A DNA stretch of 64,000 nt from a virus, in the IMG/VR virus record IMGVR_UViG_3300042445_001604, positions 1-64,000 of that record. The stretch is one strand, 5' to 3'. A program made the translations under genes and the position numbers. Each line of letters begins with the position of its first letter. Position 1 is the first letter of the stretch. Under the pieces are notes generated by a model, which was not told where the DNA came from, made no database searches, and saw nothing but the letters and a program-made list of their open reading frames with translations. Below, in pieces: positions 47,743-62,982 of the stretch.

Positions 47743-48039
47743 ATGACGAACACCACCGTCCTCAACGCCGAAGCCCAGCGGGCAGTATCGGCACTCGAAA
47801 CCGCCCGCAAGATGGTTGCCGAAGCCAAGCGTATCGAAGACGCGGCAAAGGCAGTCCTCAACGAAGCACTCACCGAAGCCAACGCAACGCACGGCACGGA
47901 CAGCAACGGCACGGTTCTCGTGGAGCGCGTGACCAGCACGAACACCTCGTTCGACCGCAAGACCCTCGAAGCGCTTTACAAGGAAGCATTCGACGCCACC
48001 ATTCGCGTTACGACCTACACCAAACTCGTCACCAAGTAA
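47743..48039 (+). CDS. small early protein, paralog family A (copy 1)
   Basis: AAAGGA RBS, upstream promoter and downstream hairpins; similar to 58949 and 61467. Confidence 0.8.
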   Translation: MTNTTVLNAEAQRAVSALETARKMVAEAKRIEDAAKAVLNEALTEANATHGTDSNGTVLVERVTSTNTSFDRKTLEALYKEAFDATIRVTTYTKLVTK

Positions 48040-48427
48040 CGCCACCGCCCGCCCCGCAAGGGGCGGGCAACCCCAAGCCCACACCGCCACGACCTAGCCC
48101 CGAAGCCCCCCGCCAGCCCACCAGCCAGCGGGGGGTTTCGCGTTGCCCGCCCCAGCCACCGACACCAGCCCGCCACGACACCGCGCACACCGACCGCGTA
48201 CGCCCGCGCACCGCGCACCGCGCCCCGCCACGCGCCCGCCACGCGCCCACGCCCGCCGACCCCGAAACGCGCCCGACCGACCGCGCACACACCCGCGCCC
48301 CAAAGTATATGTTTTTTGAGCGACCGCGCCCACCACCCGCGCAACCACCGCGCTACTTGCGAATGTCCGCGCTATGGTGTAGACTGATTACATCAGCAAG
48401 ACACCACGAACAAAGGACACAAACAAA

Positions 48428-48601
48428 ATGAGCACCACCCCCACCTACACCGTCTGGTCAAGCGGAACTCTCGCGCAGACCAACGCGGAAACCGAAGTTT
48501 ACTTTTTCCGTTTCGATTGGGTGAATGTCTGGGCGACCAACGCAGACACCGCTAGGGCAATTGTTCTCCAACTTATGGAAGACGAATTCGCAAAGCGCTA
48601 A
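48428..48601 (+). CDS. small protein (57 aa), paralog family B (copy 1)
   Basis: Hand translation MSTTPTYTVWSSGTLAQTNAETEVYFFRFDWVNVWATNADTARAIVLQLMEDEFAKR; promoter, RBS and terminator present. Confidence 0.8.
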   Translation: MSTTPTYTVWSSGTLAQTNAETEVYFFRFDWVNVWATNADTARAIVLQLMEDEFAKR

Positions 48602-48743
48602 CGCGCCACGCGGGCGGGCGGGGAAACCCGCCCGCTTTCGCGTACCCGCCCACGACACGCCCGACACTCTCACCGCTTGACTTTTGTTTGATACCGTGAT
48701 AGACTTGCGATAGCAAGTCACCACAACGAAAGGACAAACCAGA

Positions 48744-48875
48744 ATGAACGTCATTCTCACCGCCACCTACACGGACGGCACAGTCGAAACATTCACCACC
48801 AAGCGCGGACAGCACTACCGCCTAGTCCAAGCACTACGCAACGCGGGCGCGACCGTCACGGGCGTACTCGCCTAG
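48744..48875 (+). CDS. small protein (43 aa)
   Basis: MNVILTATYTDGTVETFTTKRGQHYRLVQALRNAGATVTGVLA; promoter, GAAAGGA RBS and terminator present. Confidence 0.75.
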   Translation: MNVILTATYTDGTVETFTTKRGQHYRLVQALRNAGATVTGVLA

Positions 48876-49070
48876 CACACGCACCACGCAACGCCCGCCG
48901 AGAGATTGGCGGGCGTTTTGCGTTTCCCGTCCGCGCACCCGTGCCCGCCGACCACGCTCAAAAAAGGTGTACTTTCCCCGCGCCCACCCGCCGACGTCGT
49001 GGATACTTGACAAACGCCCGCGCTACTGGTATGATGATGTCATCAGCAACACCAAACAAGGAGATACAAA

Positions 49071-49268
49071 ATGACCAGCACCCCCGCCACCGTTCTCGGT
49101 TCGGTTATGATTACCGCCGTCCTCGCGAACGGTATGCCCGTGAAAATGGTTCAGCACGTCGGTAACGAAAACGTGCTTGACGACTACCGCGAGATGTACG
49201 CTACTCTCGTCGCGCTTGGCAAGTACCAGAGCGCCACCGTCGAAGCATACGGCTACCGCAACGCCTAA
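49071..49268 (+). CDS. small protein (65 aa)
   Basis: AAGGAG RBS, promoter and terminator. Confidence 0.78.
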   Translation: MTSTPATVLGSVMITAVLANGMPVKMVQHVGNENVLDDYREMYATLVALGKYQSATVEAYGYRNA

Positions 49269-49414
49269 CACGCGCCACACGAACGCCCCGCCGAAACGCG
49301 GGGCGTTCGCTTTTGTCCGCGACACGCCAACACCGTAAGCACTTGCGAATGTCTGCCGTCTATGGTATACTAAAAGTAAGAAGCAACACCACACCAAACA
49401 AAGGACAAAACGAA

Positions 49415-49552
49415 ATGACCACCGTCACCGCCAACTTTGGAAACCGCACCGAGAGCGTAGACGTCCCCGACGCCTACATTGACGACGTGATTGACGACTA
49501 CTTTGCGAATGGCGCGATTACCGTCACGACCAACAGCGACGCACTCGTCTAA
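49415..49552 (+). CDS. small acidic protein (45 aa)
   Basis: MTTVTANFGNRTESVDVPDAYIDDVIDDYFANGAITVTTNSDALV; promoter and RBS. Confidence 0.75.
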   Translation: MTTVTANFGNRTESVDVPDAYIDDVIDDYFANGAITVTTNSDALV

Positions 49553-49759
49553 CGCCCGCCAGCGACGCCCCCGCCGAAACGCGGGGGCGTTGTCGTTTGC
49601 GCTCATCGCGACCGCGCAACACCCGCGCCCCGCGTTGCTCAAAAAACATATACTTTTGCCCGCGCACCGCGAGCGCCCCGCGACACGATAAAACGGTACG
49701 ACTTGCGAAAATAAATAATCCCTGGTAGAGTGGTGGTACACCACGACGAAAGGAACACA

Positions 49760-50032
49760 ATGACAAACGCCGAACTAAAACGAGAAATTCGCACGGAACT
49801 CAAACGCGCTGGCGAATGGGTATCCAAAAGTTCTACCACCGCAGTACGCAGTTTTCACAACGCAACTAGCGGGTGGAACATTAGCGAGTTTGCTGGGAAT
49901 GTCCAACTCAACTATGTTCGAAACGGAATGGGCGCGACAACGCAGGACGACTTGGCGCGAGCGTTTGCTATTCTCGCAAACGCTGGGCTAGGCGTAGAGA
50001 TTAGGGACAACCGAGTGTTTGTGTCCGCATAA
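49760..50032 (+). CDS. small protein (90 aa)
   Basis: GAAAGGA RBS, promoter and terminator. Confidence 0.78.
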   Translation: MTNAELKREIRTELKRAGEWVSKSSTTAVRSFHNATSGWNISEFAGNVQLNYVRNGMGATTQDDLARAFAILANAGLGVEIRDNRVFVSA

Positions 50033-50240
50033 GCAATCGTCAAACCGAGCGGGCGGGGAGAAATCCCCGTCCGTTTTCTTTTTGCGTAACCGCGCACCCC
50101 CCGCGCCCGCCGACCACGCTCAAAAAAGGTATACTTTTTCGACCCCGCCCCACCGCGACCGTCACGATTAGGTTGTGTCGGCAGTAGATGATATACTTGA
50201 CACAACGCGGGAAACCGCCTAACCAAAGGACACAAACGAA

Positions 50241-50534
50241 ATGACCACCACATACCCCACACGCGTAATGGACACCCCTACGCTTCTCAACCAAATCGGG
50301 CAGATGAACTTCCTAGCCATCTCTGGCGGGCGTATTGCCTACGACAACAACAACGGCGTTATCTTGCCCGTATCGAACGGCTACATTGTCCGTATCGTCC
50401 TCGCTGGAAACGACACCTACCGAGTAACGCGCGAATACAAGCGTGGCACTTACACCGTCAAGCGCGAGTGGACAGATGTTTACTGTGACGAAATCGGGGA
50501 AATCGCGTATCTCGCTTCTTGCTTCCGCGACTAA
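50241..50534 (+). CDS. small phage protein (97 aa)
   Basis: AAAGGA RBS; LLNQIG...AISGGR...L..NDTY.V...DVYCDEI pattern; terminator. Confidence 0.8.
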   Translation: MTTTYPTRVMDTPTLLNQIGQMNFLAISGGRIAYDNNNGVILPVSNGYIVRIVLAGNDTYRVTREYKRGTYTVKREWTDVYCDEIGEIAYLASCFRD

Positions 50535-50626
50535 AAATCAAAACGCAAACGCCCGCGCTAACCACGCGGGCGTTCTGCTTTTACCCGCGCAACCGCGAGC
50601 GCCGAAAGTATATGTTTTTTGAGTGA

Positions 50627-52036
50627 CTACCGCGAGCCGAAAATACGCCCGCCCGTACGCCCACCGCGTCCGAGCGTAATGCGCCGTCCCGCGACAGACT
50701 TAGCCGTAATGTTCCCGCCCAAAAACCCAGCGGGTGGTTTGATGAGCAACGCCGTGAGCGCGTGAACGAGCGCGTCCACGCGGTCTGGGGATTTTCCCTC
50801 GCCCGGTATCCACGACGTCATTTGACTTTCTAGTTCCGCGAGAAACCCTATGTGATGTACGCGCCCTTGTTCGTAGGCGAGCGTAATCGGTTCTGCCCTC
50901 AACGCTTTTCCGTACTTCGAGTGAACTTCCAACACTTGGATTGTCGGGTCGATTGTTTGGATTGCGTTACGCACTAACGCCCCACCTTGATTGACTTCTG
51001 CGACGACGGGGCAACCCCACTTGCGAGCCATTGCCACAACCCGTTCTGCCCACACCGTAGGCGAGCCAAGCACCGAAGCGTCCTCAATTACCCACGATTG
51101 ACGTTTGTATAGGTCGCGTTCACCCGTGCTTGCGACGACGACGATACCGCACTCATCACGGGGATTTTCAGCAACCGACGGGTCTACGCCGATTACGCGC
51201 AACGGTACTGATGACGGCATACCGTTTTGACGATTGTTTTCGATTAGTTCGTCCGTCCACAACGCGCCCTCAACCGCGTCCAACATTTCACCGTAAAGTT
51301 CTTGACGGGCTAACCGCGTACCTTCGTAAACGCCCGTGATTGCGTCTATGTATGATGACGACAAGTTGCCCGCGTTATCCATTGTTGAGCCACGCGATAC
51401 CCAGATTTTTCCTGTCTTGTCCGCTTCGCCCAACAAGTCATATAAAAGTTTTACGCGCTTCGGCGTTGTTGTTGCCAAGATTTGTGGATTGCTTCCGAGT
51501 CGAGTAGCGACGCGCAAGTTATCCCACGACGACATTCCCGCTGCGTCTGGCGTCTGACGCCACGCTGCAACTTCGTCTGCCCACGAGTAGTTTGCTTGGA
51601 CACCACGCAAGGAGTCTGGTTCATCTGCCGTGCCGAGCAACGCGACGTTTCCGTTTGGCCAGGTCAGACGGCGCTTCGACGGTTCATACAACGGCATCTC
51701 CGACGGCGGGGATACACTCATAATTCCCGAATCGCCCTCAACCAAAACGTCACGCACGTCCGCTGCGGTACGAGCAACTAAAAGGAAACGCAACTTTCCC
51801 TCTGATGTTACTCGCGCTTTTTCGCGTACCCATTCAGCAGCCGAGCGCGTCTTACCCGCGCCACGTCCTGCGAGAAACAAACCAACATTCCACGACGAAT
51901 CTTTCGGCGGGATTTGTTCGGGTCGTCCCCAAAAGTCCCACGCCCATAGTAAGTTGTCTGGGTCTATGCCCGCCATTGCTTCGGCGCGTTCTGCTTCGGG
52001 GAGTGCCGCTACGATTTGCGCGAGTGATTGTGCCAT
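50627..52036 (-). CDS. terL: terminase large subunit
   Basis: RPEQ, LAGRGAGKTR (Walker A), LRG, WADE (Walker B), ATTTPK, RQELYGE, IGVDP, AEVNQGG, SPDRVDA nuclease motifs. Confidence 0.95.
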   Translation of the reverse strand: MAQSLAQIVAALPEAERAEAMAGIDPDNLLWAWDFWGRPEQIPPKDSSWNVGLFLAGRGAGKTRSAAEWVREKARVTSEGKLRFLLVARTAADVRDVLVEGDSGIMSVSPPSEMPLYEPSKRRLTWPNGNVALLGTADEPDSLRGVQANYSWADEVAAWRQTPDAAGMSSWDNLRVATRLGSNPQILATTTPKRVKLLYDLLGEADKTGKIWVSRGSTMDNAGNLSSSYIDAITGVYEGTRLARQELYGEMLDAVEGALWTDELIENNRQNGMPSSVPLRVIGVDPSVAENPRDECGIVVVASTGERDLYKRQSWVIEDASVLGSPTVWAERVVAMARKWGCPVVAEVNQGGALVRNAIQTIDPTIQVLEVHSKYGKALRAEPITLAYEQGRVHHIGFLAELESQMTSWIPGEGKSPDRVDALVHALTALLIKPPAGFLGGNITAKSVAGRRITLGRGGRTGGRIFGSR

Positions 52037-52133
52037 TTACTCATCATACCACTCAAAAAACCTATACTTCTGGCAACCGCCTGCCGAGCAAAAGAAAAAC
52101 CCCCCGCCCGTAGGCGAGGGGCTGGGGGAAGAC

Positions 52134-52301
52134 TTAGTAGTCTTCGCGCGGGTCGTACCCGCCTGCCCCACGCGCCACATTGTGGCACGGAAGACAGCGT
52201 TCCACGGGGTCGCCCGCGTGGAAGAACAGCACGGGGGAAAAGTCCCCGCATGCCTCGCACTCGCGCTCGCGAGTGAAGGGGTTTTCGTCAAGGTCGAACA
52301 C
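52134..52301 (-). CDS. small zinc-finger protein
   Basis: GTG start after GAAAGGA; CEAC...CLPC. Confidence 0.65.
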   Translation of the reverse strand: MFDLDENPFTRERECEACGDFSPVLFFHAGDPVERCLPCHNVARGAGGYDPREDY

Positions 52302-52475
52302 GAGAAAATCCTTTCGGTTGGTGGAACACCAGACTAACACACATCACACACAAAGTCAAGTCCCGACGCACCGCGTAGCCCCCCGCGCTGAAAGTATATG
52401 TTTTTTGAGTAGCCACCCCGAAGTCCGCCCCAAAAGGAAAACCCCCCGCTTCCGCGAGGGGCTTCCGTGTCCGCG

Positions 52476-52727
52476 TTACCGCGAGCGACGAGCGTAGCGA
52501 GGGGCGCGATAAGTTACCGCGTTCCAAGCGAACAGAATTACCGAGATGGTCAGCGCACCGATTGCTTCTGCGAGCGCCATACCGCCGACATAGAACTCAA
52601 AACTTTCGCCGTACTTGATTGCGTCGGTGATGAGAATGAGCGAGATAAATCCCGCAACGCCCAGAAAGAAAAGGGCGACGCCCGCGCGTACTTTCCGCGC
52701 GGAGTTGGTGTTGGTGGTGTTTGTCAT
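52476..52727 (-). CDS. two-TM membrane protein, leaderless
   Basis: Two hydrophobic helices; TTGACA-18-TATACT-6 nt-ATG. Confidence 0.75.
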   Translation of the reverse strand: MTNTTNTNSARKVRAGVALFFLGVAGFISLILITDAIKYGESFEFYVGGMALAEAIGALTISVILFAWNAVTYRAPRYARRSR

Positions 52728-52731
52728 AGGA

Positions 52732-52923
52732 CTAGTATATCACTTTGTCCAGCGCAATGTCAAATGGTTCGAAGCCGAGCGCGTTGCCAATTTCGATACC
52801 GTTTGTGCGAGCGTAAATGCGAGCATTCACGAGCGAGTTCGACGTGATTTTCACCGTGTCGTATTCGAGTGCCGTCACGCCGAGCGCTTCGAACTCGAAT
52901 GTGTATGCGTTGTTATTTGTCAT
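52732..52923 (-). CDS. small protein, leaderless
   Basis: TTGACA-17-TATAGT-6 nt-ATG; starts MTNNNAY. Confidence 0.7.
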   Translation of the reverse strand: MTNNNAYTFEFEALGVTALEYDTVKITSNSLVNARIYARTNGIEIGNALGFEPFDIALDKVIY

Positions 52924-53080
52924 ACACCCACTATACCAAGTAACGTAGCGTTTGTCAAGTCGCAAGATGAGCGTGTCGCCAACCCCCGCCCGCTACTCAA
53001 AAAACATATACTTTCCCCGACGCCCGTCGCAGGAAACACGGAAGCCCCCCACCCAAAGGTGAGGGGCTTCTTTGCGAGGA

Positions 53081-53185
53081 CTACTCGCCGTAGTAGCCGT
53101 AGTCCTCGTCCGTGCCAAACCCCGCGCTGGCGAGCGCGTCGGCGTCCGCCCAAGCGTCGTCGCCGTCGTAGTCGTCAAAGTCCAT
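53081..53185 (-). CDS. very acidic 34 aa peptide
   Basis: Hand translation MDFDDYDGDDAWADADALASAGFGTDEDYGYYGE; own promoter, GAAAGGGGG RBS and terminator. Confidence 0.75.
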   Translation of the reverse strand: MDFDDYDGDDAWADADALASAGFGTDEDYGYYGE

Positions 53186-53359
53186 TGTCCCCCCCTTTCG
53201 TCGTTGCCACCAGTCTACCCCATAGCACCGACAAAGTCAAGCAACGACACACCGAGCGAGGCTCATCACCCGCGCACGGAAAGTACACCTTTTTTGAGCC
53301 ACGCCCCGCGCACAGCAAAACGCCCGCCGTTTCCAGCGGGCGCTTGCGAGAGGCGGGCG

Positions 53360-53812
53360 TTACACCCGCGAGGCGCACACCGGGCCGATACCCGCGCTAA
53401 CCGACTTCGGGTCGGTGAGGAACGCGCTACACACACAGCAGATACCCGTTTCCACGCCCCACGCTTTCGCTTCGTCAAGGGTCATACGGTCGTCAGCGGT
53501 GATGAGGCGCATTGCGCCCTGCTCGAAAACGAACGTGTTGTTCGCCCAGTCGAGTTTCTTGGCGTAGAGGCGTCCGCTCTCACGCGAACGCTGAATGCGG
53601 TAAATGTCGCCGTTTGCGAGGCGGTACATTCCGAGTTCGAGTTCGACGAACGAAACCCGCGAGGCGGGCTTGGGCATTGCGAGCAAAAACTCAATGAGTT
53701 CGCTCGCTTCGCGGACGGTCAAGCCAGCCGACTTGCGCTCGGCAAGGTCGTACTCGCGCTCACTCGCGAGCGAGGTGAGGAACGAAATTTGCTTGGGAGT
53801 TGCGGGGTTCAT
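53360..53812 (-). CDS. DUF6011-like zinc-binding protein
   Basis: ATPKQISFL N-terminus; GICCVC...LTDP.S...GIGPVCA. Confidence 0.8.
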   Translation of the reverse strand: MNPATPKQISFLTSLASEREYDLAERKSAGLTVREASELIEFLLAMPKPASRVSFVELELGMYRLANGDIYRIQRSRESGRLYAKKLDWANNTFVFEQGAMRLITADDRMTLDEAKAWGVETGICCVCSAFLTDPKSVSAGIGPVCASRV

Positions 53813-54013
53813 CTTGTGTCCTTTCGGTGGTGGGTGCTTCGTGCTTCCAGTCTAACACACACCTACGACAAACGCAAGTCACGACACACATTCGGCGTTT
53901 CCGCGAGCGCCGACGGCGCACCCGCGCTCGCCCCGCGCGAAAGTATATGTTTTTTGAGCCAGCGGGGAAAAGAAAAACCCCCGCGCAAGGAGAATACGCG
54001 GGGGGCTTTCTTT

Positions 54014-54124
54014 TTAGAGTTGGATACGCTCTCCCGTGATGATGTTCACCACGACCGCACCCGGCCCGAACGCTGCTTCCATTTCGTAGCGTTCCTCGTC
54101 AGAGATTTCGCGCTTGTCGCTCAT
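54014..54124 (-). CDS. 36 aa peptide
   Basis: Hand translation MSDKREISDEERYEMEAAFGPGAVVVNIITGERIQL; promoter, GAAAGGGA RBS and terminator. Confidence 0.75.
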   Translation of the reverse strand: MSDKREISDEERYEMEAAFGPGAVVVNIITGERIQL

Positions 54125-54311
54125 TTCTCGTCCCTTTCTCTTTTGATTTGTTATCACTAGTCTACACTATCTGTTTTGATTTGTCAAGTCAGACCGCACA
54201 TTGTCTTTGTCAATGTATAAAGTGTGTCGCGCTAGATTTTTAGTACTGTTAGTGATACAATGCTAGACCGCAAAAAGAAAACCCCCGCATAGCGGGGGCT
54301 TCTTTGTCAGG

Positions 54312-54839
54312 TTATGACTTTGATTTCAGCACTTGGTATGAGCCACCGTCGCCGTTCAGTTGGGGCATATACCCGTACCGAGCCAGACGGAAACGGATAC
54401 TCGCGGGCGTTACGCCCAACCGCTTTGCCAGACGATAAATTGTCACGCCCTCGACCGTCCGAGCGTGGTTGAGTAGTCGTGAAAACTCCTCGCCCTCTGC
54501 CCGAAACGCGGGAGATTTTCCGCGCACTTGGGAAGCGAGTGGACGCAATTCACGCAACCGCGCAAGTGTGTCCGCGTTCGGCTCGGTGTAAACGGGCTTC
54601 ATCTTTTCGGCAACGACGGGCGGAAGCGGGATTTCGTCGAACACAATTCCAACGGTGTTTACCGTCGCAATTTGTCGTACTCGTTCCCGCGTAATTCCCG
54701 TTGCTTCGGATATGGACTGTAATGTCCAACCCGCGTTTCGTAGTGCTGTGATGTAATCGTTTCGTTCGTTGATACCTAGCGTTGTGAACTTTTCGTGGAC
54801 TTCGCTAGGCAAGGTTAGGTTTGTTTTGCGAAACCGCAT
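54312..54839 (-). CDS. double helix-turn-helix DNA-binding protein (sigma70 region 4-like first HTH)
   Basis: AGWTLQSISEATGITRERVRQI and GVTIYRLAKRLGVTPASIRFRL; start MRFRK after GAAAGGA. Confidence 0.82.
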   Translation of the reverse strand: MRFRKTNLTLPSEVHEKFTTLGINERNDYITALRNAGWTLQSISEATGITRERVRQIATVNTVGIVFDEIPLPPVVAEKMKPVYTEPNADTLARLRELRPLASQVRGKSPAFRAEGEEFSRLLNHARTVEGVTIYRLAKRLGVTPASIRFRLARYGYMPQLNGDGGSYQVLKSKS

Positions 54840-54953
54840 TGCTTGTGTCCTTTCGTTGATTATTAGTATTGACTTCACTAGCCTAACACGACCAAATAAA
54901 AAAGTCAAGCCCGCCACGCGCAACCGCACGACGGACTTGACTTTTGTTAGAGA

Positions 54954-55379
54954 CTATGCTAGAATTAGTTTGACTGTCCTGTCCCCAGCGAAAAGGGATT
55001 TTAGAAACTCTGCGTCGATTTCTCCGTCGCCCAACTTCTTATCGGCACGATACGCTTTCACCGCGTTGAGTGTCAATGCTTCGTAATAACCGGGCTTTGC
55101 TTGACGGACAATTTCGTAGCCCAAGTCAAACAAACGACGCTGAACTTGCCAAACCGACATTGACGTTTTGCTTTTTTTGTTCTCGAAAATAATGTTGCGC
55201 TCTAAAACTTCGACAAGTTCCGACGGCGCACTTTCCGCAGGACTTGTGACAGCAATTTCCTCGGCGGGTGTCGGCGCGATTTCTTCCTCGACTACCGCGA
55301 ACATTTTGTCTTCGTCGGAAAGTACATCTTTTTTGAGTGACGACGGCGTGGTCGGCACGGGAGTTTTCTCATCTGACAT
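54954..55379 (-). CDS. peptidoglycan-binding-domain protein
   Basis: VWQVQRRLFDLGY...Y...T.NAVKAYR..KL.DGEID; start MSDEK after AAAGGA. Confidence 0.7.
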   Translation of the reverse strand: MSDEKTPVPTTPSSLKKDVLSDEDKMFAVVEEEIAPTPAEEIAVTSPAESAPSELVEVLERNIIFENKKSKTSMSVWQVQRRLFDLGYEIVRQAKPGYYEALTLNAVKAYRADKKLGDGEIDAEFLKSLFAGDRTVKLILA

Positions 55380-55381
55380 TG

Positions 55382-55552
55382 TTATTCCTTTTGTGAGAGT
55401 ACGGAGAGAGTAATGCTTCCAAGTCCCAAGACAACCGCAAGTCCCGTCATTGACGGAATAAAGATTGCTGTGGAGATGGCGACGACAATCAAGACAACCG
55501 AAATTACGGAAAGCCACGAGATGTCGCGGAGAATGATAAGTAGTCTGTTCAT
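55382..55552 (-). CDS. small two-TM membrane protein, leaderless
   Basis: Two hydrophobic segments; TGTGG-TACGAT-6 nt-ATG. Confidence 0.65.
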   Translation of the reverse strand: MNRLLIILRDISWLSVISVVLIVVAISTAIFIPSMTGLAVVLGLGSITLSVLSQKE

Positions 55553-55595
55553 TCTGCTATCGTACCACAATTACTTTGTGTAACAACGGCGCGTG

Positions 55596-55790
55596 TTACT
55601 CGTCGCGCAAAGCACGGCGCAACTTTGCCCCGCGTGTCCGCGCTCGGCGTTCACCCGCGTTGGCGTGTGTTCCTGCGCCGTTCCCGCGAGAACGCTCAAC
55701 GATTACGGCGTTGAGTTCACGCGCGTGGGCGTTGCGAACAGACAAGTTCGCCATACCCAAGACGGGCTTTTGCTTTTTGTTCTTTGCCAT
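55596..55790 (-). CDS. small basic protein
   Basis: 64 aa, Arg/Lys-rich; promoter and AAAGGA RBS. Confidence 0.75.
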   Translation of the reverse strand: MAKNKKQKPVLGMANLSVRNAHARELNAVIVERSRGNGAGTHANAGERRARTRGAKLRRALRDE

Positions 55791-55884
55791 TTCGTTTCCT
55801 TTCTCGTGGCGTAGTTACAGTATACCATTTGGCTACTGCGTTGTCAAGTAAGAAAGGGGCGAGATTTCTCTCGCCCCCGACTTG

Positions 55885-55980
55885 TTAGTCATTCCAAGCG
55901 TGGCCCGGAAACGCTTGCTTCATTTCGCGTTCCCAGCAAGGGAAGCACTTTCCCTCGTCGTTGTGTTCGCAGTTCGTCAT
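55885..55980 (-). CDS. 31 aa Cys/His peptide
   Basis: Hand translation MTNCEHNDEGKCFPCWEREMKQAFPGHAWND; promoter and RBS. Confidence 0.65.
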   Translation of the reverse strand: MTNCEHNDEGKCFPCWEREMKQAFPGHAWND

Positions 55981-56094
55981 TGCGTGTCCTTTCGTTGTGG
56001 TGTACCACCAGTCTACTACATACCTACGACATTGTCAAGTACCGACGGCGCACCCGCGCTGGGGGAAAGTATATGTTTTTTGAGTACGGCGCGA

Positions 56095-56259
56095 AAAAAG
56101 AAACGCGAGAGATTTTTCTCCCGCGTTCCGATTTGTCAAGTTTAGGGTGAGCATTTGTTTCGAGCAGACGCACATACTCAGGTGCGGAGAGCCGTCTGTT
56201 ATGTTGCTAAACTGTTCGGCTCTCTTACAGTTTAGGGTGGTAGCCCACACTTTGGCTAC
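56095..56259 (-). ncRNA. candidate structured (pseudoknotted) non-coding RNA of about 165 nt
   Basis: Own promoter TTGACA(56294)-17-TAGTAT and U-tailed terminator; three stems plus GAGAGC/GCTCTC loop pairing; no RBS-led ORF. Confidence 0.6.
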
Positions 56260-56295
56260 ATCTAAATACTAGCACACGGCAATCCAAATGTCAAG

Positions 56296-56583
56296 TTAGG
56301 ACATTGGTGGTGTCGTCGTCAAGTCGTAGTTTCGGAAACGGACTTCGTGCGCGAACAACATCACTTCGGGATTTACGGTGGAGATAGTCGCAATCTCAAC
56401 TATGTCGCCCTGAACCATATGCTTCACGACTTCCCGTGACAACGCTCGTGCTGGCGCGACAAAAAACTTCCGCCCCTTTTCGTCCGCCATAAAGAATGAA
56501 CCGACGAACCCAATGGTCATTGGATTTCGTAGCACTCGCCCCGCGAGTATGCTGGTCTTTTGGTCTGCTGAGTATTTTGCCAT
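56296..56583 (-). CDS. small protein, possible OB/cold-shock-like fold, leaderless
   Basis: TTGACA-17-TACCGT-6 nt-ATG; GF...KFFV...GDIVEI pattern. Confidence 0.65.
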   Translation of the reverse strand: MAKYSADQKTSILAGRVLRNPMTIGFVGSFFMADEKGRKFFVAPARALSREVVKHMVQGDIVEIATISTVNPEVMLFAHEVRFRNYDLTTTPPMS

Positions 56584-56702
56584 ACCCCGACGGTACAACA
56601 TCACCCGCGCATTGTCAAGCCCCGCGTTACTCAAAAAAACTATACTTTTGATTTCCCGGCCAAAAAAGAAACGGGGGACTTTCGCCCCCCGCCCTTTCCT
56701 TT

Positions 56703-56918
56703 TTACTCGTCGATTTCGATACCGTTAGCGACGGCGATTTCGTTGAGCCACGCGAGCGCGTCCTGCCGAGCGCGAAGTCCTCGTCCGAAGTCCTCGCCCG
56801 TAAGACGCTTGACGACCGAGAGTGCGGGTTCACGGGTGAGCGTCATACGCGACGTGTCCCACGTCTTGATTTCGATTTTGAGTGCTTGGCGCATTAGCAC
56901 CAATTGGATTTCGTTCAT
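56703..56918 (-). CDS. small protein (71 aa)
   Basis: Start MNEIQ after GAAAGGA; promoter and terminator. Confidence 0.78.
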   Translation of the reverse strand: MNEIQLVLMRQALKIEIKTWDTSRMTLTREPALSVVKRLTGEDFGRGLRARQDALAWLNEIAVANGIEIDE

Positions 56919-57110
56919 TTCACTTCCTTTCGTCGTGGTGTCTTGCTTTGTAGTTTCAGTATACACCCCACCACCGACATTGTCAAGTCCTGACGAAAAA
57001 ATCTTTTCTGACATAATCCCAAAAATCCAAAAGTATACCTTTTTTGAGCAACTGCCGACCGCGCACGGGAAACCCGCCCGCGCTCTCGCGTGGGCGGGCG
57101 ACCGCGCCGA

Positions 57111-57344
57111 TTAGGAGAGAGCGTCTGCTCGCTCGTGGAAAATCTCGGAGTGTGCGTCCATTGACTTCTTGATAATGGCGTCCACCGTGGCGATAACCGT
57201 CTGGACTTCGTCCTCGGAGAGCGTACGGTACTGGGCGGTGAACAGCGCGTTCATCATAGCCGACCGCGCGTCCGAAGCGCCGAAACCGTGCCCGAGAGCG
57301 TACATCATATTCCCGTGGCGGATAGTGTTGTCGAGAGTGTTCAT
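57111..57344 (-). CDS. small protein (77 aa)
   Basis: AAAGGA RBS; leader shared with the gene starting at 58158. Confidence 0.78.
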   Translation of the reverse strand: MNTLDNTIRHGNMMYALGHGFGASDARSAMMNALFTAQYRTLSEDEVQTVIATVDAIIKKSMDAHSEIFHERADALS

Positions 57345-57455
57345 TTTGTGTCCTTTGTTTGTGGTGACTTGATACTCTCATCTTACCGGGCACCTACGAC
57401 ATTGTCAAGTCCATAGCCAAAAGAAAAAGCGGGGACATTTCTGCCCCCGCTAGTC

Positions 57456-57782
57456 CTAGCCCGCGTAGTTCACGCCGTAGTGCGCGTGGACGGCGTCGGG
57501 GAAACGGTTGTCCCGTAGGTACTGCTGACCGTCCGTCGTGAGCGTCACGTCAAGATACTGACCGCAATCGCACGCCGTCGGGGAGTCGGACTCGATTTCT
57601 CCGAAGTGGTCGGAGTGAGCGTAAGCACCGCTCTCGTGTTCCGCCGTGAACGACGGGTACTCGAAGTGGAGTCCGTTTTCGGTGGCGTACTCGCGAGCGC
57701 ATTTCTCGCACGCGATGGCGATGAAGTCGCCCGCCCCGTCACCGATTACCCACGGTTCCGTGATGAAAAGAATGTTGTCCAT
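57456..57782 (-). CDS. small zinc-binding protein
   Basis: Start MDNIL after AAAGGGG; CEKC...CDCG. Confidence 0.75.
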   Translation of the reverse strand: MDNILFITEPWVIGDGAGDFIAIACEKCAREYATENGLHFEYPSFTAEHESGAYAHSDHFGEIESDSPTACDCGQYLDVTLTTDGQQYLRDNRFPDAVHAHYGVNYAG

Positions 57783-57981
57783 TCTGTTCCCCTTTTCTTT
57801 GTAGTTATCAAGTCCAGCAATTGCTGGTAGTAACCACTTTACACTAGTTCGACCAAAAGCGCAATACCAAAAATTCTCGGGCGTGTCACCCGCGCACCTA
57901 CCGCGCACAAAAGTACACCTTTTTTGAGCGCACCGCGATAGGCGGGCGGGGCTTGCGCCCGCACCCGCCCGACCGCCCGCG

Positions 57982-58158
57982 TTAGCGGGTGACGGTCGCG
58001 CTGTCCAGCAATCGGCGAACAATCGCTTCAGCGGTGTCGCCGTCCGTTGCCCAGACGTCAACCCAGCCGAAACGGAAAAAGCGCAATGACGACATAGCGT
58101 CAATCTGCGCGATAGTGTTGTTCGACCAGATGACATATTCGGGAATGGTGTTGTCCAT
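57982..58158 (-). CDS. small protein (58 aa), paralog family B (copy 2)
   Basis: Hand translation MDNTIPEYVIWSNNTIAQIDAMSSLRFFRFGWVDVWATDGDTAEAIVRRLLDSATVTR. Confidence 0.8.
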   Translation of the reverse strand: MDNTIPEYVIWSNNTIAQIDAMSSLRFFRFGWVDVWATDGDTAEAIVRRLLDSATVTR

Positions 58159-58284
58159 TTTGTGTCCTTTGTTTGTGGTGACTTGCTTACAGTATGAGTA
58201 TACCGCGTGTGTTTGTGTTTGTCAAGTTGTGGGGAGAGAGTGCGGGCGGGGAGATTATTCTCACCCGCCCGCGTAGCCACCACG

Positions 58285-58500
58285 CTACATCTTGATTGCG
58301 TAGACCTTCGTCTGACGCGCGTACCGAATAAGCGCAACCTTTACGCCTAGTTCGATTGAGTCCGACTTGTTCGTCGCTTGTCCGTGTCCTGCCAGACCTT
58401 GTACGATAAAGTCCTTGTCCTCGTCCCAAGCCTTCTGAACTTCTGCTTGTGACTTGTAGTCGCGCCCGTAGGCGGGGACTAGATTTATTGTCGTGAACAT
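58285..58500 (-). CDS. small phage protein (71 aa)
   Basis: L.PAYGRDYKS..EV..AW...KDF; promoter and RBS. Confidence 0.8.
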   Translation of the reverse strand: MFTTINLVPAYGRDYKSQAEVQKAWDEDKDFIVQGLAGHGQATNKSDSIELGVKVALIRYARQTKVYAIKM

Positions 58501-58575
58501 TATGTTCCCTTCGTCGTGTGGTGTTTGGTATTTAGTTGTAGGTACAGTCTAGCGCATACTGCTCGACTTGTCAAG

Positions 58576-58722
58576 TCAAGCGGGGAGTAAGTCCTCGAAC
58601 GGGACGACCGCAAAATACGACTTGTCCCAATAGACCAGAGCCGTACCTGCGCTCGCGTCCTCAACTACTTCTCCTACTGCCGTGAACGGGACGAGTCCCG
58701 TGTCGCCTATGTAGATGACCAT
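58576..58722 (-). CDS. small beta-rich protein (48 aa)
   Basis: Hand translation MVIYIGDTGLVPFTAVGEVVEDASAGTALVYWDKSYFAVVPFEDLLPA; promoter and RBS. Confidence 0.7.
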   Translation of the reverse strand: MVIYIGDTGLVPFTAVGEVVEDASAGTALVYWDKSYFAVVPFEDLLPA

Positions 58723-58948
58723 TGTGTTTCCCTTCGTCGTGTGGTGTGACTTGCTACTGCCACTCTACTCTGACCGCAATCAAAAGTCAAGCGTCGCTGA
58801 CGCGGGCGTGTCGTCACCGCGCACCGCGCTCGCTCAAAAAACCTATACTTTTGGACGGCGCAAGAGAATCCCCCGCGCGGACAAAGGGGAAACAAAACCG
58901 CGCGGGGGAAGTTTGGGGAGAGGGGACTTTCGTCCCCCCTCGGACGGC

Positions 58949-59236
58949 TTACGCCGTGACGAGAACCGTGAAGTTCGTCGTCTTGGCGAGCGCGTTGTAA
59001 AGGTCGGCGTCGGCGTCCTTGAGGTCGCTTGCGCTGACGGTGACGCGCGTGCGCTCGCTCACCTTGAGGACGGTGACGCCCGCGAGGGTCGCAACCGTGG
59101 CGTCGCCGAGAATCTGGCGGATACGCGCCTCGGCGTCCTTCTTGGCGTTCTCCGCGTCGCGGATAACCGCCTTGGCGTCCTCGAAGTCCTTGAGGGCTTT
59201 TGCGCCCTCGAGGTCGAGGGAGATGGTGTTCGTCAT
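58949..59236 (-). CDS. small early protein, paralog family A (copy 2)
   Basis: Start MTNTIS after GAAAGG; clearly similar to 61467. Confidence 0.82.
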   Translation of the reverse strand: MTNTISLDLEGAKALKDFEDAKAVIRDAENAKKDAEARIRQILGDATVATLAGVTVLKVSERTRVTVSASDLKDADADLYNALAKTTNFTVLVTA

Positions 59237-59403
59237 TGTGGTAGTGCCTTTCGTTTGAGGGAGAGCCAATCTCGCCCTGTGATATCAGTATACATACGAC
59301 CACGGACATTGTCAAGTCGAAACGCAAAAAACTTTTTTTATTTTTGACTTGACTTTGTCCGAGGACTATGATACACTTATGGAACAACGACGAAAGGGAA
59401 AAA

Positions 59404-59511
59404 ATGAATTGCTCAACCTGCGAGAAGTCGCTCGAAACCGAAAACCACGAGCCTTGCGCTAATCTCCGATTTGCGCTCGCCATTCTCCAAGTTCCACTCC
59501 CCCGACGATAA
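59404..59511 (+). CDS. 35 aa Cys/His peptide
   Basis: MNCSTCEKSLETENHEPCANLRFALAILQVPLPRR; TTGACT-17-TACACT promoter and GAAAGGG RBS. Confidence 0.65.
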   Translation: MNCSTCEKSLETENHEPCANLRFALAILQVPLPRR

Positions 59512-59661
59512 GGACGGCGCGAGCGGGCGGGCTTCGGCTCGCTCGCTTTCCCGCGCCCGCGCTCGGCGCGACAAAAGTACACCTTTTTTGAGCGAGTGCC
59601 CGCGCCCGCGAGCGGAAACGCGAAACGCCCGCACCTTTCGGCACGGGCGTCGCGTCGTCGG

Positions 59662-59847
59662 CTACTGAACGAACCAAGTCCCGACTTTGTTGCCATTCTC
59701 GTCCCGCGTCGTCCCGCCGATAATCGTCGAGCCGGGCGTGATGGAGAAATTGGCGACGGACTCCGCGACGCGCCGAATGGCGTCCGCGAGGTCGTGCTCG
59801 TCTTTCATTGCGTCATTCCCGAGGGAGATGGTGAGTTCGAACTTCAT
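59662..59847 (-). CDS. small phage protein (61 aa)
   Basis: MKFELTI..GNDA...RDENGNKVG.W; RBS present. Confidence 0.78.
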   Translation of the reverse strand: MKFELTISLGNDAMKDEHDLADAIRRVAESVANFSITPGSTIIGGTTRDENGNKVGTWFVQ

Positions 59848-59936
59848 TGTCTTACCTTTCGTCGTTGTGGTGTGTTGCTGTCTAACCATTGTAACACAGA
59901 GCGCGGACAAACACAAGTCTGCCCGCGCTCGGTGTG

Positions 59937-60134
59937 TCAAACGTCAGTCGAGTAGTCGAAAGACTGTTCGTGCGCTACGCCACAGTAGATACATTCCTCA
60001 ACCGACGCGAGAGCGAATCCGCGCGGAAAGTATGTGTGAAGTGCGACCTGCGGGAAATAGTCATTCTCGTCCTCGGCGCACGCGCTAAAGATGAATTCCA
60101 TTTCGTCTTGGTGAAGTGGCTCGTTGTTGTCCAT
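59937..60134 (-). CDS. small acidic Cys-containing protein
   Basis: Promoter and GAAAGG RBS; CIYCG. Confidence 0.7.
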   Translation of the reverse strand: MDNNEPLHQDEMEFIFSACAEDENDYFPQVALHTYFPRGFALASVEECIYCGVAHEQSFDYSTDV

Positions 60135-60328
60135 TGTGTTGCCTTTCGTCGTTGTGGTGTAGTACCACTCTACCAGGGACTACCGACATTCGCAAGTCTG
60201 CCGAGCGTCGGCGCGTCGCCCCGCGCCCGCCAGCGGGCGAAAGTATACCTTTTTTGAGCGGGTGTCGGCGCGTGGCGGGCGACGGCGCGAGAAACGCGAG
60301 CGCGAGTTTCCCCGCGCCCGCGCGTCCC

Positions 60329-60745
60329 CTATTCCGCGTCCTCGTTGTTCGCGTCGAGCGTGAAAGTGAATACTCCCGTGCCCGTCGGCTCGTCGTGCGA
60401 CCACCGCACGGCAGTCAGCGCAGTCCCGTCGAAACGGTATTCGATACGGTATTCCCCGTTGATAGTCATAGCCGAGTGAATATCCCGCGCCGATACCGAC
60501 GCCCAGCCCGCGCGTCGTTGCCAGCCCATTCCCGTACCGTCAATACGGATAGTCGTCGCGTCGTCCGCGCCGATTACCGCGAGCCACGGCTTGTAGGCGT
60601 TCTCGATGAAGTCGTCCCACGCCGTGTCGTAGCACCCGAAACACTCCGTGCCGTCTGACGGGCGAAACTCGCCAGTTTCCTCGTCGTAAATTTCACACTC
60701 GCACTCTGTGGTGAGTGTGACTGTGGTGAGCGTTGTTTCAGTCAT
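60329..60745 (-). CDS. small phage protein (138 aa)
   Basis: Start MTETT after GAAAGGA; CEC...CFGC, MGW..R.G, SHDEPTG. Confidence 0.78.
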   Translation of the reverse strand: MTETTLTTVTLTTECECEIYDEETGEFRPSDGTECFGCYDTAWDDFIENAYKPWLAVIGADDATTIRIDGTGMGWQRRAGWASVSARDIHSAMTINGEYRIEYRFDGTALTAVRWSHDEPTGTGVFTFTLDANNEDAE

Positions 60746-60798
60746 TCTGTCTTTCCTTTCGTCGTGTGGTGGTGCGTTGTCTTGCCAGTATAGCACAA

Positions 60799-61008
60799 TT
60801 ACTTTCCGAGCGCAAGTCGCGCGTCCAATTTTGTTTCGATTAGTTTCAGCGTGAGAGCGTCCGCGCGTCCAGCGTCCGCGTAGGCGTATCCGCGTGAAGT
60901 GTCGTGCGCTTGGTGGATTACCGCACGATAAGTCCCGCCGACCTTGCCGAGATAGCGAACAACATAGTCCGCGCCCCTGTATGAGATAGTGACTTTGTGG
61001 TGTTTCAT
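60799..61008 (-). CDS. small protein (69 aa)
   Basis: Start MKHHK after GAAAGGA. Confidence 0.7.
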   Translation of the reverse strand: MKHHKVTISYRGADYVVRYLGKVGGTYRAVIHQAHDTSRGYAYADAGRADALTLKLIETKLDARLALGK

Positions 61009-61180
61009 TGTCTTTCCTTTCGTTGTGTCTTGCGTGTATCTCCATTGTAGCGACGACCACGGACACGAAACTAAATTGCCCGCGCGTCGTCCCGCGCGTC
61101 CCGCGCCACTCAAAAAACCTATACTTTCACCGCGCACGGCAGAAGCCCCACCCTTTCGGGTGAGGCGACCGCGCGAGGCG

Positions 61181-61360
61181 TTAGACCAGCGTCTGTGGCG
61201 CGACCGAGAAGTTCTCGATAAGGAATTCGTAGGCGCGAGCGCGACCCTCTGACCACTCTGCCATTACGACCATACCGAGTTCCGCGTACCGCGCGGATTT
61301 GGTGCGGTTATCCTCTGCCATTTCTTTCAGAAGTGATAGGGGTACGGAGACCATTTCCAT
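61181..61360 (-). CDS. small protein (59 aa)
   Basis: Start MEMVS after GAAAGGA; promoter. Confidence 0.7.
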   Translation of the reverse strand: MEMVSVPLSLLKEMAEDNRTKSARYAELGMVVMAEWSEGRARAYEFLIENFSVAPQTLV

Positions 61361-61466
61361 TGTGTATCCTTTCGTCGTGGTGTCGTTCATAAGTTCAGTC
61401 TAGCGCATTGTCCGCGCGTTGTCAAGTTGGGGAGAGAGGGCGCGTTTCCGCGCCCCCTCTGACCGC

Positions 61467-61760
61467 TTACGCGGTGACGAGGACGGTGAAGTCCGTGACC
61501 TTTGCGAGGCGGTTGTAGAGTGCTTCGTCCGCTTCTTTGACCGCGCTGGCGGTAATCGAAACGCGTGTCCGTGCGCTTACGCGAACGGCGGTGATGCCCG
61601 CAATCGTGCCAGCGGTAGCCGTGCCGAGAGCCTCGCGGATAACTGCTTCCGCTTCGGTCTTGACTGCTTCCGCTTCGCGGATAACGCGCTTCGCTTCCTC
61701 GAAGCGGTGGAGTGCGCTGACCGCTTCTAGGTCGAACGCGACGGTGGTCGTGGTGTCCAT
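61467..61760 (-). CDS. small early protein, paralog family A (copy 3)
   Basis: Start MDTTT after GAAAGGA; ends LYNRLAKVTDFTVLVTA. Confidence 0.82.
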   Translation of the reverse strand: MDTTTTVAFDLEAVSALHRFEEAKRVIREAEAVKTEAEAVIREALGTATAGTIAGITAVRVSARTRVSITASAVKEADEALYNRLAKVTDFTVLVTA

Positions 61761-62008
61761 TCTGTATTTCCTTTCGTTGAGGGAGAGCCAATCTCGCCCT
61801 ATGTCATTGAGTTTAGCGTATGTCGTTTTGTTTGTCAAGTCCATTCGCAAACTTTCTTTATTGAGTTATGTCGAAAGTCTATCCGCGACCACGGACACGA
61901 AACTCGACCGCGCACGGCGACGGCGAAAAGTATACCTTTTTTGAGCGACCGCACGGCGCGGAAAACGACGAACGCCCTGCCCTTTCGAGCAGAGCGTCCG
62001 CGCGTTGG

Positions 62009-62359
62009 TTAGGAGAGCGGTGCGCCAGCGTAGAGCAAGTCCGCGACCAATTCCGCGACCTGCTCGTCAGTCAGACCGAGAGTTTCGCCGTCGTCGTCCG
62101 CGCCACCCGTGATGATAGCGTTTCCGACGATTACATCTACCGCGCCGAACGCCGATACGAATAACCGAGTTGCGAGAACATTCGGCGCAAGTCCGTCGAG
62201 TTTCCCTTCCTCGTTTACCCAGAGCGTCAGACCGCTCGGAAGCGATACCGCTTCAATCATTCCGCCGACCGCACGAGAGAGCGTCGCGTATGACACAAAC
62301 TCGTCCGTGTCCTGCTCGACCTCGACAGTGCTGTCGGTGGTCAGTACTACTGCTTTCAC
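62009..62359 (-). CDS. DUF3846-like protein
   Basis: VGGMIEAV, LWVNEEGKL.GL.PN..AT, IVGNAIITG; GTG start after GAAAGGA. Confidence 0.82.
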   Translation of the reverse strand: MKAVVLTTDSTVEVEQDTDEFVSYATLSRAVGGMIEAVSLPSGLTLWVNEEGKLDGLAPNVLATRLFVSAFGAVDVIVGNAIITGGADDDGETLGLTDEQVAELVADLLYAGAPLS

Positions 62360-62529
62360 TTTGTTTCCTTTCGTCGTGTGTTTGTCCTGCCCTATCAGTA
62401 TAGCGACTATCTCGCCACTTGTCAAGTCTGACCGCACGATAGTTTTGCGGGCGCGTCGCCACTCAAAAAACCTATACTTTCGAGCGACGAAAAAAGGACG
62501 GGCGCTTTCGCGCCCGCCCCCGTCACCCG

Positions 62530-62667
62530 TTAGAGAAACTCAATCGGGTCGCGGTCCTCGAAAATATCTTCGAGTTCCGAGAGCGAAAACCCGTCAGAGT
62601 TTTCCCAGAAGTCCGAGAGTGCTTCGCGGATACGGTCGCCCTGCTCGTCGGTCGTGTGCTTGTCCAT
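62530..62667 (-). CDS. acidic 45 aa peptide
   Basis: Hand translation MDKHTTDEQGDRIREALSDFWENSDGFSLSELEDIFEDRDPIEFL; promoter, RBS and terminator. Confidence 0.7.
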   Translation of the reverse strand: MDKHTTDEQGDRIREALSDFWENSDGFSLSELEDIFEDRDPIEFL

Positions 62668-62709
62668 TGTGTCACCGTCCTTTCGTCGTGTCGTGGTGTA
62701 CTACCCACC

Positions 62710-62982
62710 TTACACTATGACGGTCGGTCTGTCAAGTTCACCCGTCAAGTGGTCGAGTTCGGTCATCACCACGCCAGCACGGGCGAGTATCTGCCCGACG
62801 GTCACACCTAACGCGCTCGCCACCCGTTCGAGTAGTTCGCTGGACATTTCCTTTTTTCCGTGCTCGACGTTGTTCAGGTGTCCGACGGCAACGTGAGCGA
62901 GCGACGCCACCGTTACTCCGTAGAGTTGTTGCTCGGTTCGCATTTCGCGTATCGTGTACCCGACGGCTTCTCTCATCAGCAT
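62710..62982 (-). CDS. XRE-family HTH protein resembling actinobacterial ClgR
   Basis: LMREAVG.TIRE.R...VA..AHVAVGHL..VEHGKKE.SSELL..VASALGV; leaderless start. Confidence 0.8.
   Translation of the reverse strand: MLMREAVGYTIREMRTEQQLYGVTVASLAHVAVGHLNNVEHGKKEMSSELLERVASALGVTVGQILARAGVVMTELDHLTGELDRPTVIV

Follow-up and report, generated by a model that had tools for sequence, protein, structure and literature searches.

What is the role of a short, nearly invariant sequence that recurs again and again among the small genes of a phage and in no other part of its known genome? The question is raised by bases 1-64000 (the window) of the 83366-bp IMG/VR record IMGVR_UViG_3300042445_001604, designated G000, in which a 19-bp, AT-rich, asymmetric and bipartite site, CTCAAAAAA-NN-TRTACTTT, is found in an array. 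We propose, with about even confidence, that these sites are an operator-like array for one putative DNA-binding protein, which would be specific to this phage lineage, would recognize an asymmetric site at the boundaries of transcription units and would directly control terL, the gene of the large terminase. The proposal is based on four observations: the site is repeated beyond chance, its arms bear the mark of selection, an arm variant occurs in a concerted manner in close relatives, and the sites occupy a defined place relative to terminators and promoters. From these we infer that a protein binds, of what kind it is, and what its binding does.

A search of the window for the pattern CTCAAAAAANNTRTACTTT gives 20 exact matches, whereas 100 dinucleotide-preserving shuffles give none. 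When up to 3 mismatches are tolerated, only one site is added (52052-52070, where the last T is replaced by C), which gives a total of 21, 9 on the plus strand and 12 on the minus strand, spaced by 284-1447 bp, with CA, GG, CC, AC or GA as the central dinucleotide. The same tolerant search detects no site in 1-48301 or in 62481-64000. The rest of the record contains two more sites, at 64687 (minus strand) and 68449 (plus strand, one mismatch), and none elsewhere, so the array consists of 23 sites across 48302-68467 (20.2 kb). No site occurs in the intergenic DNA outside this span, although that amounts to half of the total in the record. According to our own gene map, 20 of the 21 sites of the window, and 22 of the 23 of the record, are intergenic. 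The sites are 15-17 A/T out of 19 bp, including an A6 tract, and the spacers that host them are 55-70% GC. Conservation extends a little beyond the 19 bp: C or T predominates at position -2, A or G occupies position -1 without exception, and 22 of 23 sites have C or T at position +1. The extended consensus is Y-R-CTCAAAAAA-NN-T-R-Y-A-Y-T-T-Y. An earlier, sequence-only reading of this DNA had described 21 copies, confined to this region and lying as AT-rich islands in GC-rich spacers between a terminator and the next promoter, and this description holds. The sites of the window, together with terL and an accompanying zone discussed below, are the following (orientation is relative to the local genes):

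48302-48320, minus strand: 19-bp site, centre CA, anti-oriented to the plus-strand genes
48957-48975, plus strand: 19-bp site, centre GG (TGTAC arm), co-oriented; terminator 33-40 nt upstream, -35 element 31 nt downstream
49638-49656, plus strand: 19-bp site, centre CA, co-oriented
50119-50137, plus strand: 19-bp site, centre GG, co-oriented
50605-50623, minus strand: 19-bp site, centre CA; separated by 3 nt from the terL stop, where terL and the plus-strand genes converge
50627-52036, minus strand: terL (Terminase_6N, Terminase_6C), embedded in the array and bracketed by two sites
52052-52070, plus strand: 19-bp site, centre CC, one mismatch; between TTGCCA and TGGTATGAT, 15 nt ahead of the terL ATG
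52391-52409, minus strand: 19-bp site, centre CA, co-oriented; within a 340-bp unit missing from the relative G001
52996-53014, plus strand: 19-bp site, centre CA, anti-oriented
53280-53298, minus strand: 19-bp site, centre GG (TGTAC), co-oriented
53940-53958, minus strand: 19-bp site, centre CA, co-oriented
55319-55337, minus strand: 19-bp site, the sole intragenic copy, centre GA (TGTAC); 45 nt into a gene for a 141-aa protein with a PG-binding domain
56066-56084, minus strand: 19-bp site, centre CA, co-oriented
56630-56648, plus strand: 19-bp site, centre AC, anti-oriented; G001 has two sites here, around an extra 833-bp unit
57030-57048, minus strand: 19-bp site, centre GG, co-oriented; between the p77 and p71 genes
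57910-57928, minus strand: 19-bp site, centre GG (TGTAC), co-oriented
58833-58851, plus strand: 19-bp site, centre CC, anti-oriented
59574-59592, minus strand: 19-bp site, centre GG (TGTAC), co-oriented
60240-60258, minus strand: 19-bp site, centre GG, co-oriented; the centre is CA in G001
61109-61127, plus strand: 19-bp site, centre CC, anti-oriented
61927-61945, minus strand: 19-bp site, centre GG, co-oriented
62462-62480, plus strand: 19-bp site, centre CC, anti-oriented; terminator stem ends 14 nt upstream, -35 element 36 nt downstream
47500-64000 (in the record, to ~68.5 kb), plus strand: zone of strand-polar CCGCGC, accompanying the sites

The comparison with G001, a second IMG/VR contig of 65.5 kb which is syntenic with G000 and 80-90% identical to it in nucleotide sequence, shows that the arms are under strong purifying selection. 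G001 has 22 exact sites in the equivalent 19.5 kb. In the site pairs that have homologous flanks, only 4 of 357 arm positions differ (1.1%), compared to 12.5% in the homologous 60-nt flanks (p = 6e-16), and insertions and deletions extend to the very edges of the sites. The central dinucleotide is much less constrained (12 of 42 positions differ), in agreement with the earlier description of near-invariant arms around a variable centre.

A third contig, G002, whose TerL is ~98% identical and which spans the equivalent of 32-64.5 kb, contains 18 sites with the same left arm, but the right arm reads TACAYTTY in 18/18, compared to TRTACTTT in G000 and G001. Position -1 is A in 17 of the 18, where G000 has A or G. 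Even the intragenic copy follows the change, from GATGTAC to GGTACAC, at the cost of two nonsynonymous changes (SLKKDVLS becomes SLKKGTLS). The three sites of L212, a fourth motif-bearing contig from the same sample, are also of the G002 type. More distant relatives lack the motif: it is absent from the Actinomycetia phage DSL-LC01, from the contigs G003 and G004, and from ~75 other TerL relatives that were fetched. Without a reader specific to the lineage, it is difficult to see how a few positions could change in concert across the genome between phages so closely related. In the stoperators of mycobacteriophages, the cognate motif tracks the divergence of the repressor (PMC6550527), and the right arm of G002 and L212 likewise makes the motif differ between related phages.

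The 19-bp element would thus act in cis, as a docking site that a single sequence-specific protein recognizes in double-stranded DNA; this protein is most likely encoded by the phage lineage. Since the two arms differ from each other and are separated by only 2 bp, a monomer with two DNA-binding modules, as in the stoperator repressors, or a heterodimer is the probable reader. The site could instead be an intrinsic DNA-structure element with no dedicated reader (a bend at the A-tract, or a meltable island which absorbs supercoils between strong promoters), or a nucleation point for a host nucleoid protein such as Lsr2. The AT-rich island in GC-rich spacers, the A6 tract and the location at the junctions of transcription-generated supercoils are in line with this idea. 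We nonetheless consider it improbable, as 17 invariant positions and a concerted switch of two positions exceed the needs of bending or AT-richness, and the bacterial genomes among the matches listed carry single chance copies only. In the motif scan of metagenome contigs, the matches listed are likewise single chance copies.

The placement of the sites is also informative. In the sense of transcription, a stop codon is followed by a terminator hairpin, a GC-rich stretch, the site, another GC-rich stretch and the -35 element. About 20 of the 23 sites have a stable hairpin (-18 to -36 kcal/mol) whose end lies 5-46 nt upstream. The spacers that bear a site measure 150-250 bp, and those that have a promoter and no site, which are commonest at 64.7-78 kb, measure 75-110 bp. 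The stretch at 65-69 kb has a single strong terminator, followed after 12 nt by the only site of that stretch. About 7 terminators have no site, mostly in compact spacers.

The small genes are stereotyped: they have a promoter of the type TTGACA-N17-TAnnnT (26 found, 5.6 expected), a common leader, ACGACGAAAGGAAAC (23 copies), and GC-rich hairpin terminators. At least 14 promoters of the same type have no site. The distance between a site and the next -35 element ranges from 11 to 88 bp (mostly 27-46 bp), no value is preferred among the sites measured, and both orientations occur, so that the fixed orientation and distance to -35, -10 and gene that characterize an element of a sigma-70-type promoter are not seen. 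The site thus goes with the junctions between terminators and promoters and is not a promoter component, in agreement with the sequence-only reading. The name "early" that it gave to the region is putative, and derives from these sigma-70-like promoters.

Because the site lies between a terminator and the next promoter, the bound protein could be a boundary element. The sites lie at the edges of self-contained transcription units, with an intrinsic terminator just before them and a sigma-70-like promoter next, and the protein would be a roadblock to RNA polymerase that reads through and/or would insulate strong promoters that stand close together. If this is true, the site would offer a small, naturally occurring part with which transcription units can be isolated, and would show how large lytic phages of the abundant freshwater Actinobacteria organize their host take-over genes.

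Two copies may be involved in direct regulation. Site 52052 has a -35-like TTGCCA on one side and, on the other, an extended -10, TGGTATGAT, followed by 6 nt and the ATG of terL. A protein bound there would cover positions -14 to -32 of this leaderless arrangement, and could occlude the terL promoter. The copy at 55319, which encodes SLKKDVLS in the 5' end of the PG-binding-domain gene, might be a roadblock within that gene.

A similar arrangement is seen at another locus. In both 52037-52051 (terL) and 46858-46875 (the operon of a 171-aa protein and the portal), the -10 hexamer, TATGAT and TATACT, respectively, is followed by 6 nt and an ATG. These two promoters look leaderless and devoid of a -35 element, unlike those of the small genes, which have a -35 element, a leader and a Shine-Dalgarno sequence. 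The sequence at 46870-46970 is nearly identical in three genomes. As to the small-gene leader, the ribosome-binding block (C/A)ACGACGAAAGGAAAC precedes 23 small genes, from 49742 to 64000 and on to 70.1 kb of the record, and recalls the start-associated sequences found in Cluster K phages; it is shared by DSL-LC01 (ACGACGAAAGGACAA). In loci of relatives that lack the 19-bp site (L071, L103, L147; DSL-LC01 20-45 kb), the small-gene arrays use a different, strictly oriented promoter-like sequence, (T)CTAAAG(A/T)TGTTATAAT, with 10-16 copies each; in several motif-less relatives, the CTAAAG(A/T)TGTTATAAT promoter comes with the leader of G000.

Site orientation is not tied to transcription: the ratio of co-oriented to anti-oriented sites is 15:8 in G000 (binomial p = 0.21), 11:11 in G001 and ~9:9 in G002. 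This confirms what had been proposed from the sequence alone, and also the distinction that had been drawn from stoperators, which are oriented with transcription. The stoperators of Cluster A mycobacteriophages (L5, Bxb1) are 13-14 bp long, occur in ~20-35 copies genome-wide and mostly point along transcription; this orientation is needed for the block of elongation, and they are read by the monomeric two-domain repressor of temperate immunity (PMC6550527, PMC9283540). The array of G000 is similar in that it consists of many short, asymmetric, near-invariant repeats in an actinobacteriophage (23 copies, 22 outside coding sequence), with a consensus that shifts between relatives. It differs in that the site is 19 bp long, bipartite, free in orientation, confined to 20 kb and tied to terminators, and neither a repressor nor an integrase was found in the 83 kb, among 64 small proteins scanned with Pfam and PHROGs.

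The 17-bp repeat of Cluster O phages, TGTTCGGNNNCCGAACA, which is present in >30 copies spread over the genome, about one third of them intragenic, is a perfect dyad of unknown function, for which a binding protein is presumed (PMC4351075). Here too the arms are invariant, the centre is variable and the flanks are GC-rich; the repeat is denser in one genome arm, and there is a gene with a copy on either side where relatives carry a single copy. The 7-bp inverted arms of Cluster O have no counterpart in the present site, which is asymmetric (in the consensus, read by eye, only 2-3 of 8-9 mirrored positions are complementary), only 1 of 23 copies is intragenic, and the copies are placed after terminators. 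The array therefore resembles stoperators and Cluster O repeats, but it does not obey the orientation rule of the former and does not have the dyad symmetry of the latter. Dispersed invariant sites are already known in actinobacteriophages; among them, the oriented stoperators of temperate Cluster A phages are the only ones whose role is understood, and the Cluster O repeats are still unexplained. The present case adds a comparative set (purifying selection, a concerted specificity switch, coupling to terminators and promoters, and a centre that senses direction) which makes the function of such repeats a testable question.

The centre of the site does depend on direction. T never occurs at position 10 or 11. 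G at position 10 (GG, GA) is found in co-oriented sites only, CC in anti-oriented sites only, and CA in both. This rule is valid in G000, G001 and G002, and in the parts of the array with plus-strand and with minus-strand genes (Fisher p = 0.003 for G000 alone). Between orthologous sites, CA is replaced by GG only if the site is co-oriented, and by CC only if it is anti-oriented. Positions 12-17 read TAnnnT, and position 10 would therefore be -14 of a -10-like hexamer; the promoters of the phage itself favour TGGTAT. It may be that G at position 10 is tolerated when a spurious start runs in the sense direction and excluded when it runs antisense.

The resemblance of the right arm to a -10 element suggests another function, in which the site engages the host RNA polymerase holoenzyme, possibly with a phage factor that reads CTCAAAAAA, and is a promoter without -35, a pause site or a polymerase trap. 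Indeed, TAnnnT is present on the motif strand of every site (TATACT or TACTTT in G000, TACATT or TACACT in G002), the concerted changes of G002 hit the "nnn" positions, phage promoters often read TGGTATACT or TGGTATGAT, the leaderless promoters of terL and of the 46857 operon resemble the centre plus right arm, and the centre rule distinguishes sense-facing from antisense-facing sites in all three genomes. However, the orientation relative to genes is random, five sites of G000 carry TGTACT, which lacks the critical A, the 9-bp invariant block at -15 to -23 corresponds to no known sigma-A element, and the downstream genes already have canonical promoters. The centre rule could equally result from selection against antisense starts at a protein site that happens to resemble a -10 element. 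We therefore regard an RNA polymerase site as unlikely.

Several points weigh against a docking site for a lineage-specific protein. The centre rule shows that a directional constraint, linked to transcription, also acts on the site. Sites that lie 30-90 bp upstream of the -35 element are poorly positioned for classical repression. The G000 record has a CheckV completeness of 49%, and about half of each compared genome is covered. None of the 64 small proteins could be identified as the binder. The only Pfam helix-turn-helix (HTH) protein among them, the 171-aa HTH_23 protein (46345-46857, minus strand, directly upstream of the portal), is a core gene of the whole family, is found in motif-less relatives and does not co-vary with the motif. 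Nor does a 90-aa XRE-like protein co-vary with it; its recognition helix groups G001 with G002 and not with G000. Two proteins do co-vary, p77 (57111-57344), which is 99% identical in G001 and 56% in G002, and p71 (56706-56918), with 83% and 59%, respectively; their genes flank site 57030, and they are among 17 small proteins that are specific to the motif-bearing lineage and common to G000, G001 and G002 (gene starts 47743, 52476, 52732, 55382, 55596, 56703/56918, 57111, 57456, 58285, 58576, 58949, 59662, 59937, 61467, 62530, 62710 and 64438). However, no DNA-binding domain is seen in either; p77 is acidic and all-helical, with homologs restricted to the lineage, and the AlphaFold2 model of p71 (three helices, pLDDT 87) has no fold match in the PDB at E < 1.

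The scan of small proteins led to some other observations. The 171-aa protein has an N-terminal HTH_23, a proline-rich linker and a second, C-terminal HTH, and is 44-94% conserved across the phage family. As a core gene with two HTH regions next to the portal and no co-variation, it probably encodes a protein like the terminase small subunit; it may be the small terminase or another core DNA-binding protein. The 90-aa XRE-type gene (62710-62982, minus strand) overlaps the stop of the upstream gene, and its 3' end carries the promoter of the next gene. The very basic p64 (55599-55790, 64 aa, pI 11.9) is lineage-specific; the ESM Atlas gave unnamed clusters only, which does not support it as a binder. 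Three paralogous proteins of 95-98 aa (47743-48039 on the plus strand, 58949-59236 and 61467-61760 on the minus strand) have an N-terminal coiled coil and a beta-rich C-terminus. Three members of the scanned set, probably these paralogs, match PHROG 434 ("RecE-like exonuclease"). The paralog at 47743 is the only small gene that is present in all four motif-bearing contigs and in no motif-less relative.

Since the sites delimit self-contained units, they could also be recombination linkers, or cassette boundaries for the gain, loss and shuffling of small genes, comparable to integron attC sites or to the modules of T4-type phages. In the latter, the PeSL cassettes of Arbiol, Comeau and Krisch (2010) reportedly consist of an early-gene promoter and a stem-loop, and form a hyperplastic region of module exchange. 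The likeness is that small early genes each have their own promoter and stem-loop; the difference is that PeSLs are the promoter and hairpin themselves, with no separate invariant protein-type site between. Two direct sites enclose the extra 833-bp unit of G001, at a place where G000 has a single site, several homology breakpoints are 14-45 bp from a site, and terL lies between an inverted pair of sites. However, 8 of 14 breakpoints are within 55 bp of a site, against ~40% expected by chance in spacers (a rough hand estimate), and the 340-bp unit specific to G000 is bounded by inverted sites, which cannot yield a deletion. Neither hybrid-arm sites, flanking inverted repeats nor clear target duplications were found, and no recombinase was detected among the proteins scanned in the 83 kb. 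The features of attC (inverted repeats or hairpin, consistent orientation, a recombinase) are not observed, and orientation is mixed. Moreover, 19 bp of identity would promote passive exchange regardless. A recombination function is thus very unlikely in our opinion.

Related possibilities were discarded. A mobile or duplicated repeat is not supported, as direct repeats in the flanks barely exceed the background measured between sites (p = 0.048) and inverted repeats fall short of it. The central dinucleotide cannot be read as that of a serine recombinase, considering that the arms are not pseudo-palindromic, that CA occurs in both polarities and that there are no hybrid-arm sites. Wherever orientation differs between genomes, the half of the spacer that contains the terminator and the site is non-homologous, so these changes are replacements, which excludes an inversion in situ. 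The Logan contigs from four lake metagenomes are short and show no clear joints at sites; the one loose end is a cross-match of two sites.

G000 is an uncultured phage of lake actinobacteria. It is siphovirus-like, with matches to DNA polymerase I, helicase, tape measure, major head, portal and large terminase proteins. Its major capsid protein is 68% identical to that of DSL-LC01, a phage assembled from a lake metagenome (PMC10611076), and ~50-55% identical to those of large Microbacterium and Arthrobacter phages. A megablast search against the phage collection gave no match. The public runs that contain the G000 sequence are lake-water metagenomes, and no RNA run is among those listed. The virion and replication genes are on the minus strand at 1-46.9 kb, seven small plus-strand genes follow at 47.7-50.5 kb, terL (minus strand) converges on them, and past terL ~60 mostly small minus-strand genes extend up to 81 kb.

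A second motif accompanies the sites. On the plus strand of the G000 array (47.5-68.5 kb), the ratio of CCGCGC to GCGCGG is 87:13, compared to 13:17 elsewhere in G000; it is 20:1 in the part with plus-strand genes and 63:12 in the part with minus-strand genes. The bias is the same in G001 (73:13) and G002 (68:12), and absent from the array of DSL-LC01 (17:22). Because the bias is limited to the array, kept in G001 and G002 and absent in DSL-LC01, CCGCGC and the 19-bp sites co-occur both regionally and phylogenetically. Half of the CCGCGC copies of the array are within 60 bp of a site, typically 7-30 bp away on its low-coordinate side, whatever the orientation of the site. In the spacers, CCCGCGC is also polar (35:2 on the plus strand), irrespective of gene direction. 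This setting brings to mind the BIME/RIP elements of enterobacteria, which are extragenic, follow the 3' ends of units in either orientation, and combine an asymmetric AT-rich IHF site with GC-rich REP repeats. REP units, however, are palindromes in inverted pairs on host chromosomes; the flanks in G000, a phage, consist of a strand-polar hexamer, and the inverted-repeat score is below the between-site background.

The polarity of CCGCGC, its proximity to the sites and its phylogenetic distribution suggest that the two elements might serve at the DNA level, outside transcription, for example in the pacing or anchoring of entering DNA, in protection against end-processing nucleases or in replication. 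The array begins beside a T-poor CAGCC tract, where late and early genes diverge, which fits this idea. On the other hand, the sites closely track terminators, a landmark of transcription, and no known mechanism requires both elements; we give this explanation little credence. A broader version, which we hold to be quite unlikely, is that the orientation-free site and the polar CCGCGC form a two-part cis code, read by a dedicated, co-evolving bipartite protein. The code would mark 20 kb beside the divergence point and putative genome end for a DNA-level process undescribed in phages, such as the topological insulation of dozens of autonomous micro-operons or the paced entry and protection of the first-entering DNA.

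The sequence-only reading had favoured a regional DNA-marking system "rather than ordinary operators". Confinement and a dedicated reader (arm selection, concerted variant) agree with the first part, but the second is too strong, since operator-like binding sites are the simplest reading. The functions that it had put forward (shut-off, looping, anchoring of first-injected DNA) are speculative. It had overlooked the tracking of terminators, the orientation-dependent centre, the copy in the terL promoter and the polar CCGCGC.

The CAGCC tract (~47.0-47.65 kb) consists of ~600 bp of T-poor CAGCC / CACGACAGCCC repeats without open reading frame at 47040-47650, exactly where the leftward virion genes and the rightward small genes diverge. 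G001 and G002 retain its composition but not its sequence; the tract may represent a packaging site, a genome end or an origin region. At ~68.53-68.56 kb of the record (estimated; L064 ~4530-4560), upstream of the last site in the array, the minus strand contains a tRNA-like T-arm and CCA end (GGGTTCGATTCCC...CACCA), where ARAGORN called no tRNA. Lastly, the 425-bp spacer at 59237-59661 contains two promoter-like sequences on the plus strand (59344, 59349), which face site 59574 against the direction of the genes, and it may be a small divergent or antisense unit.

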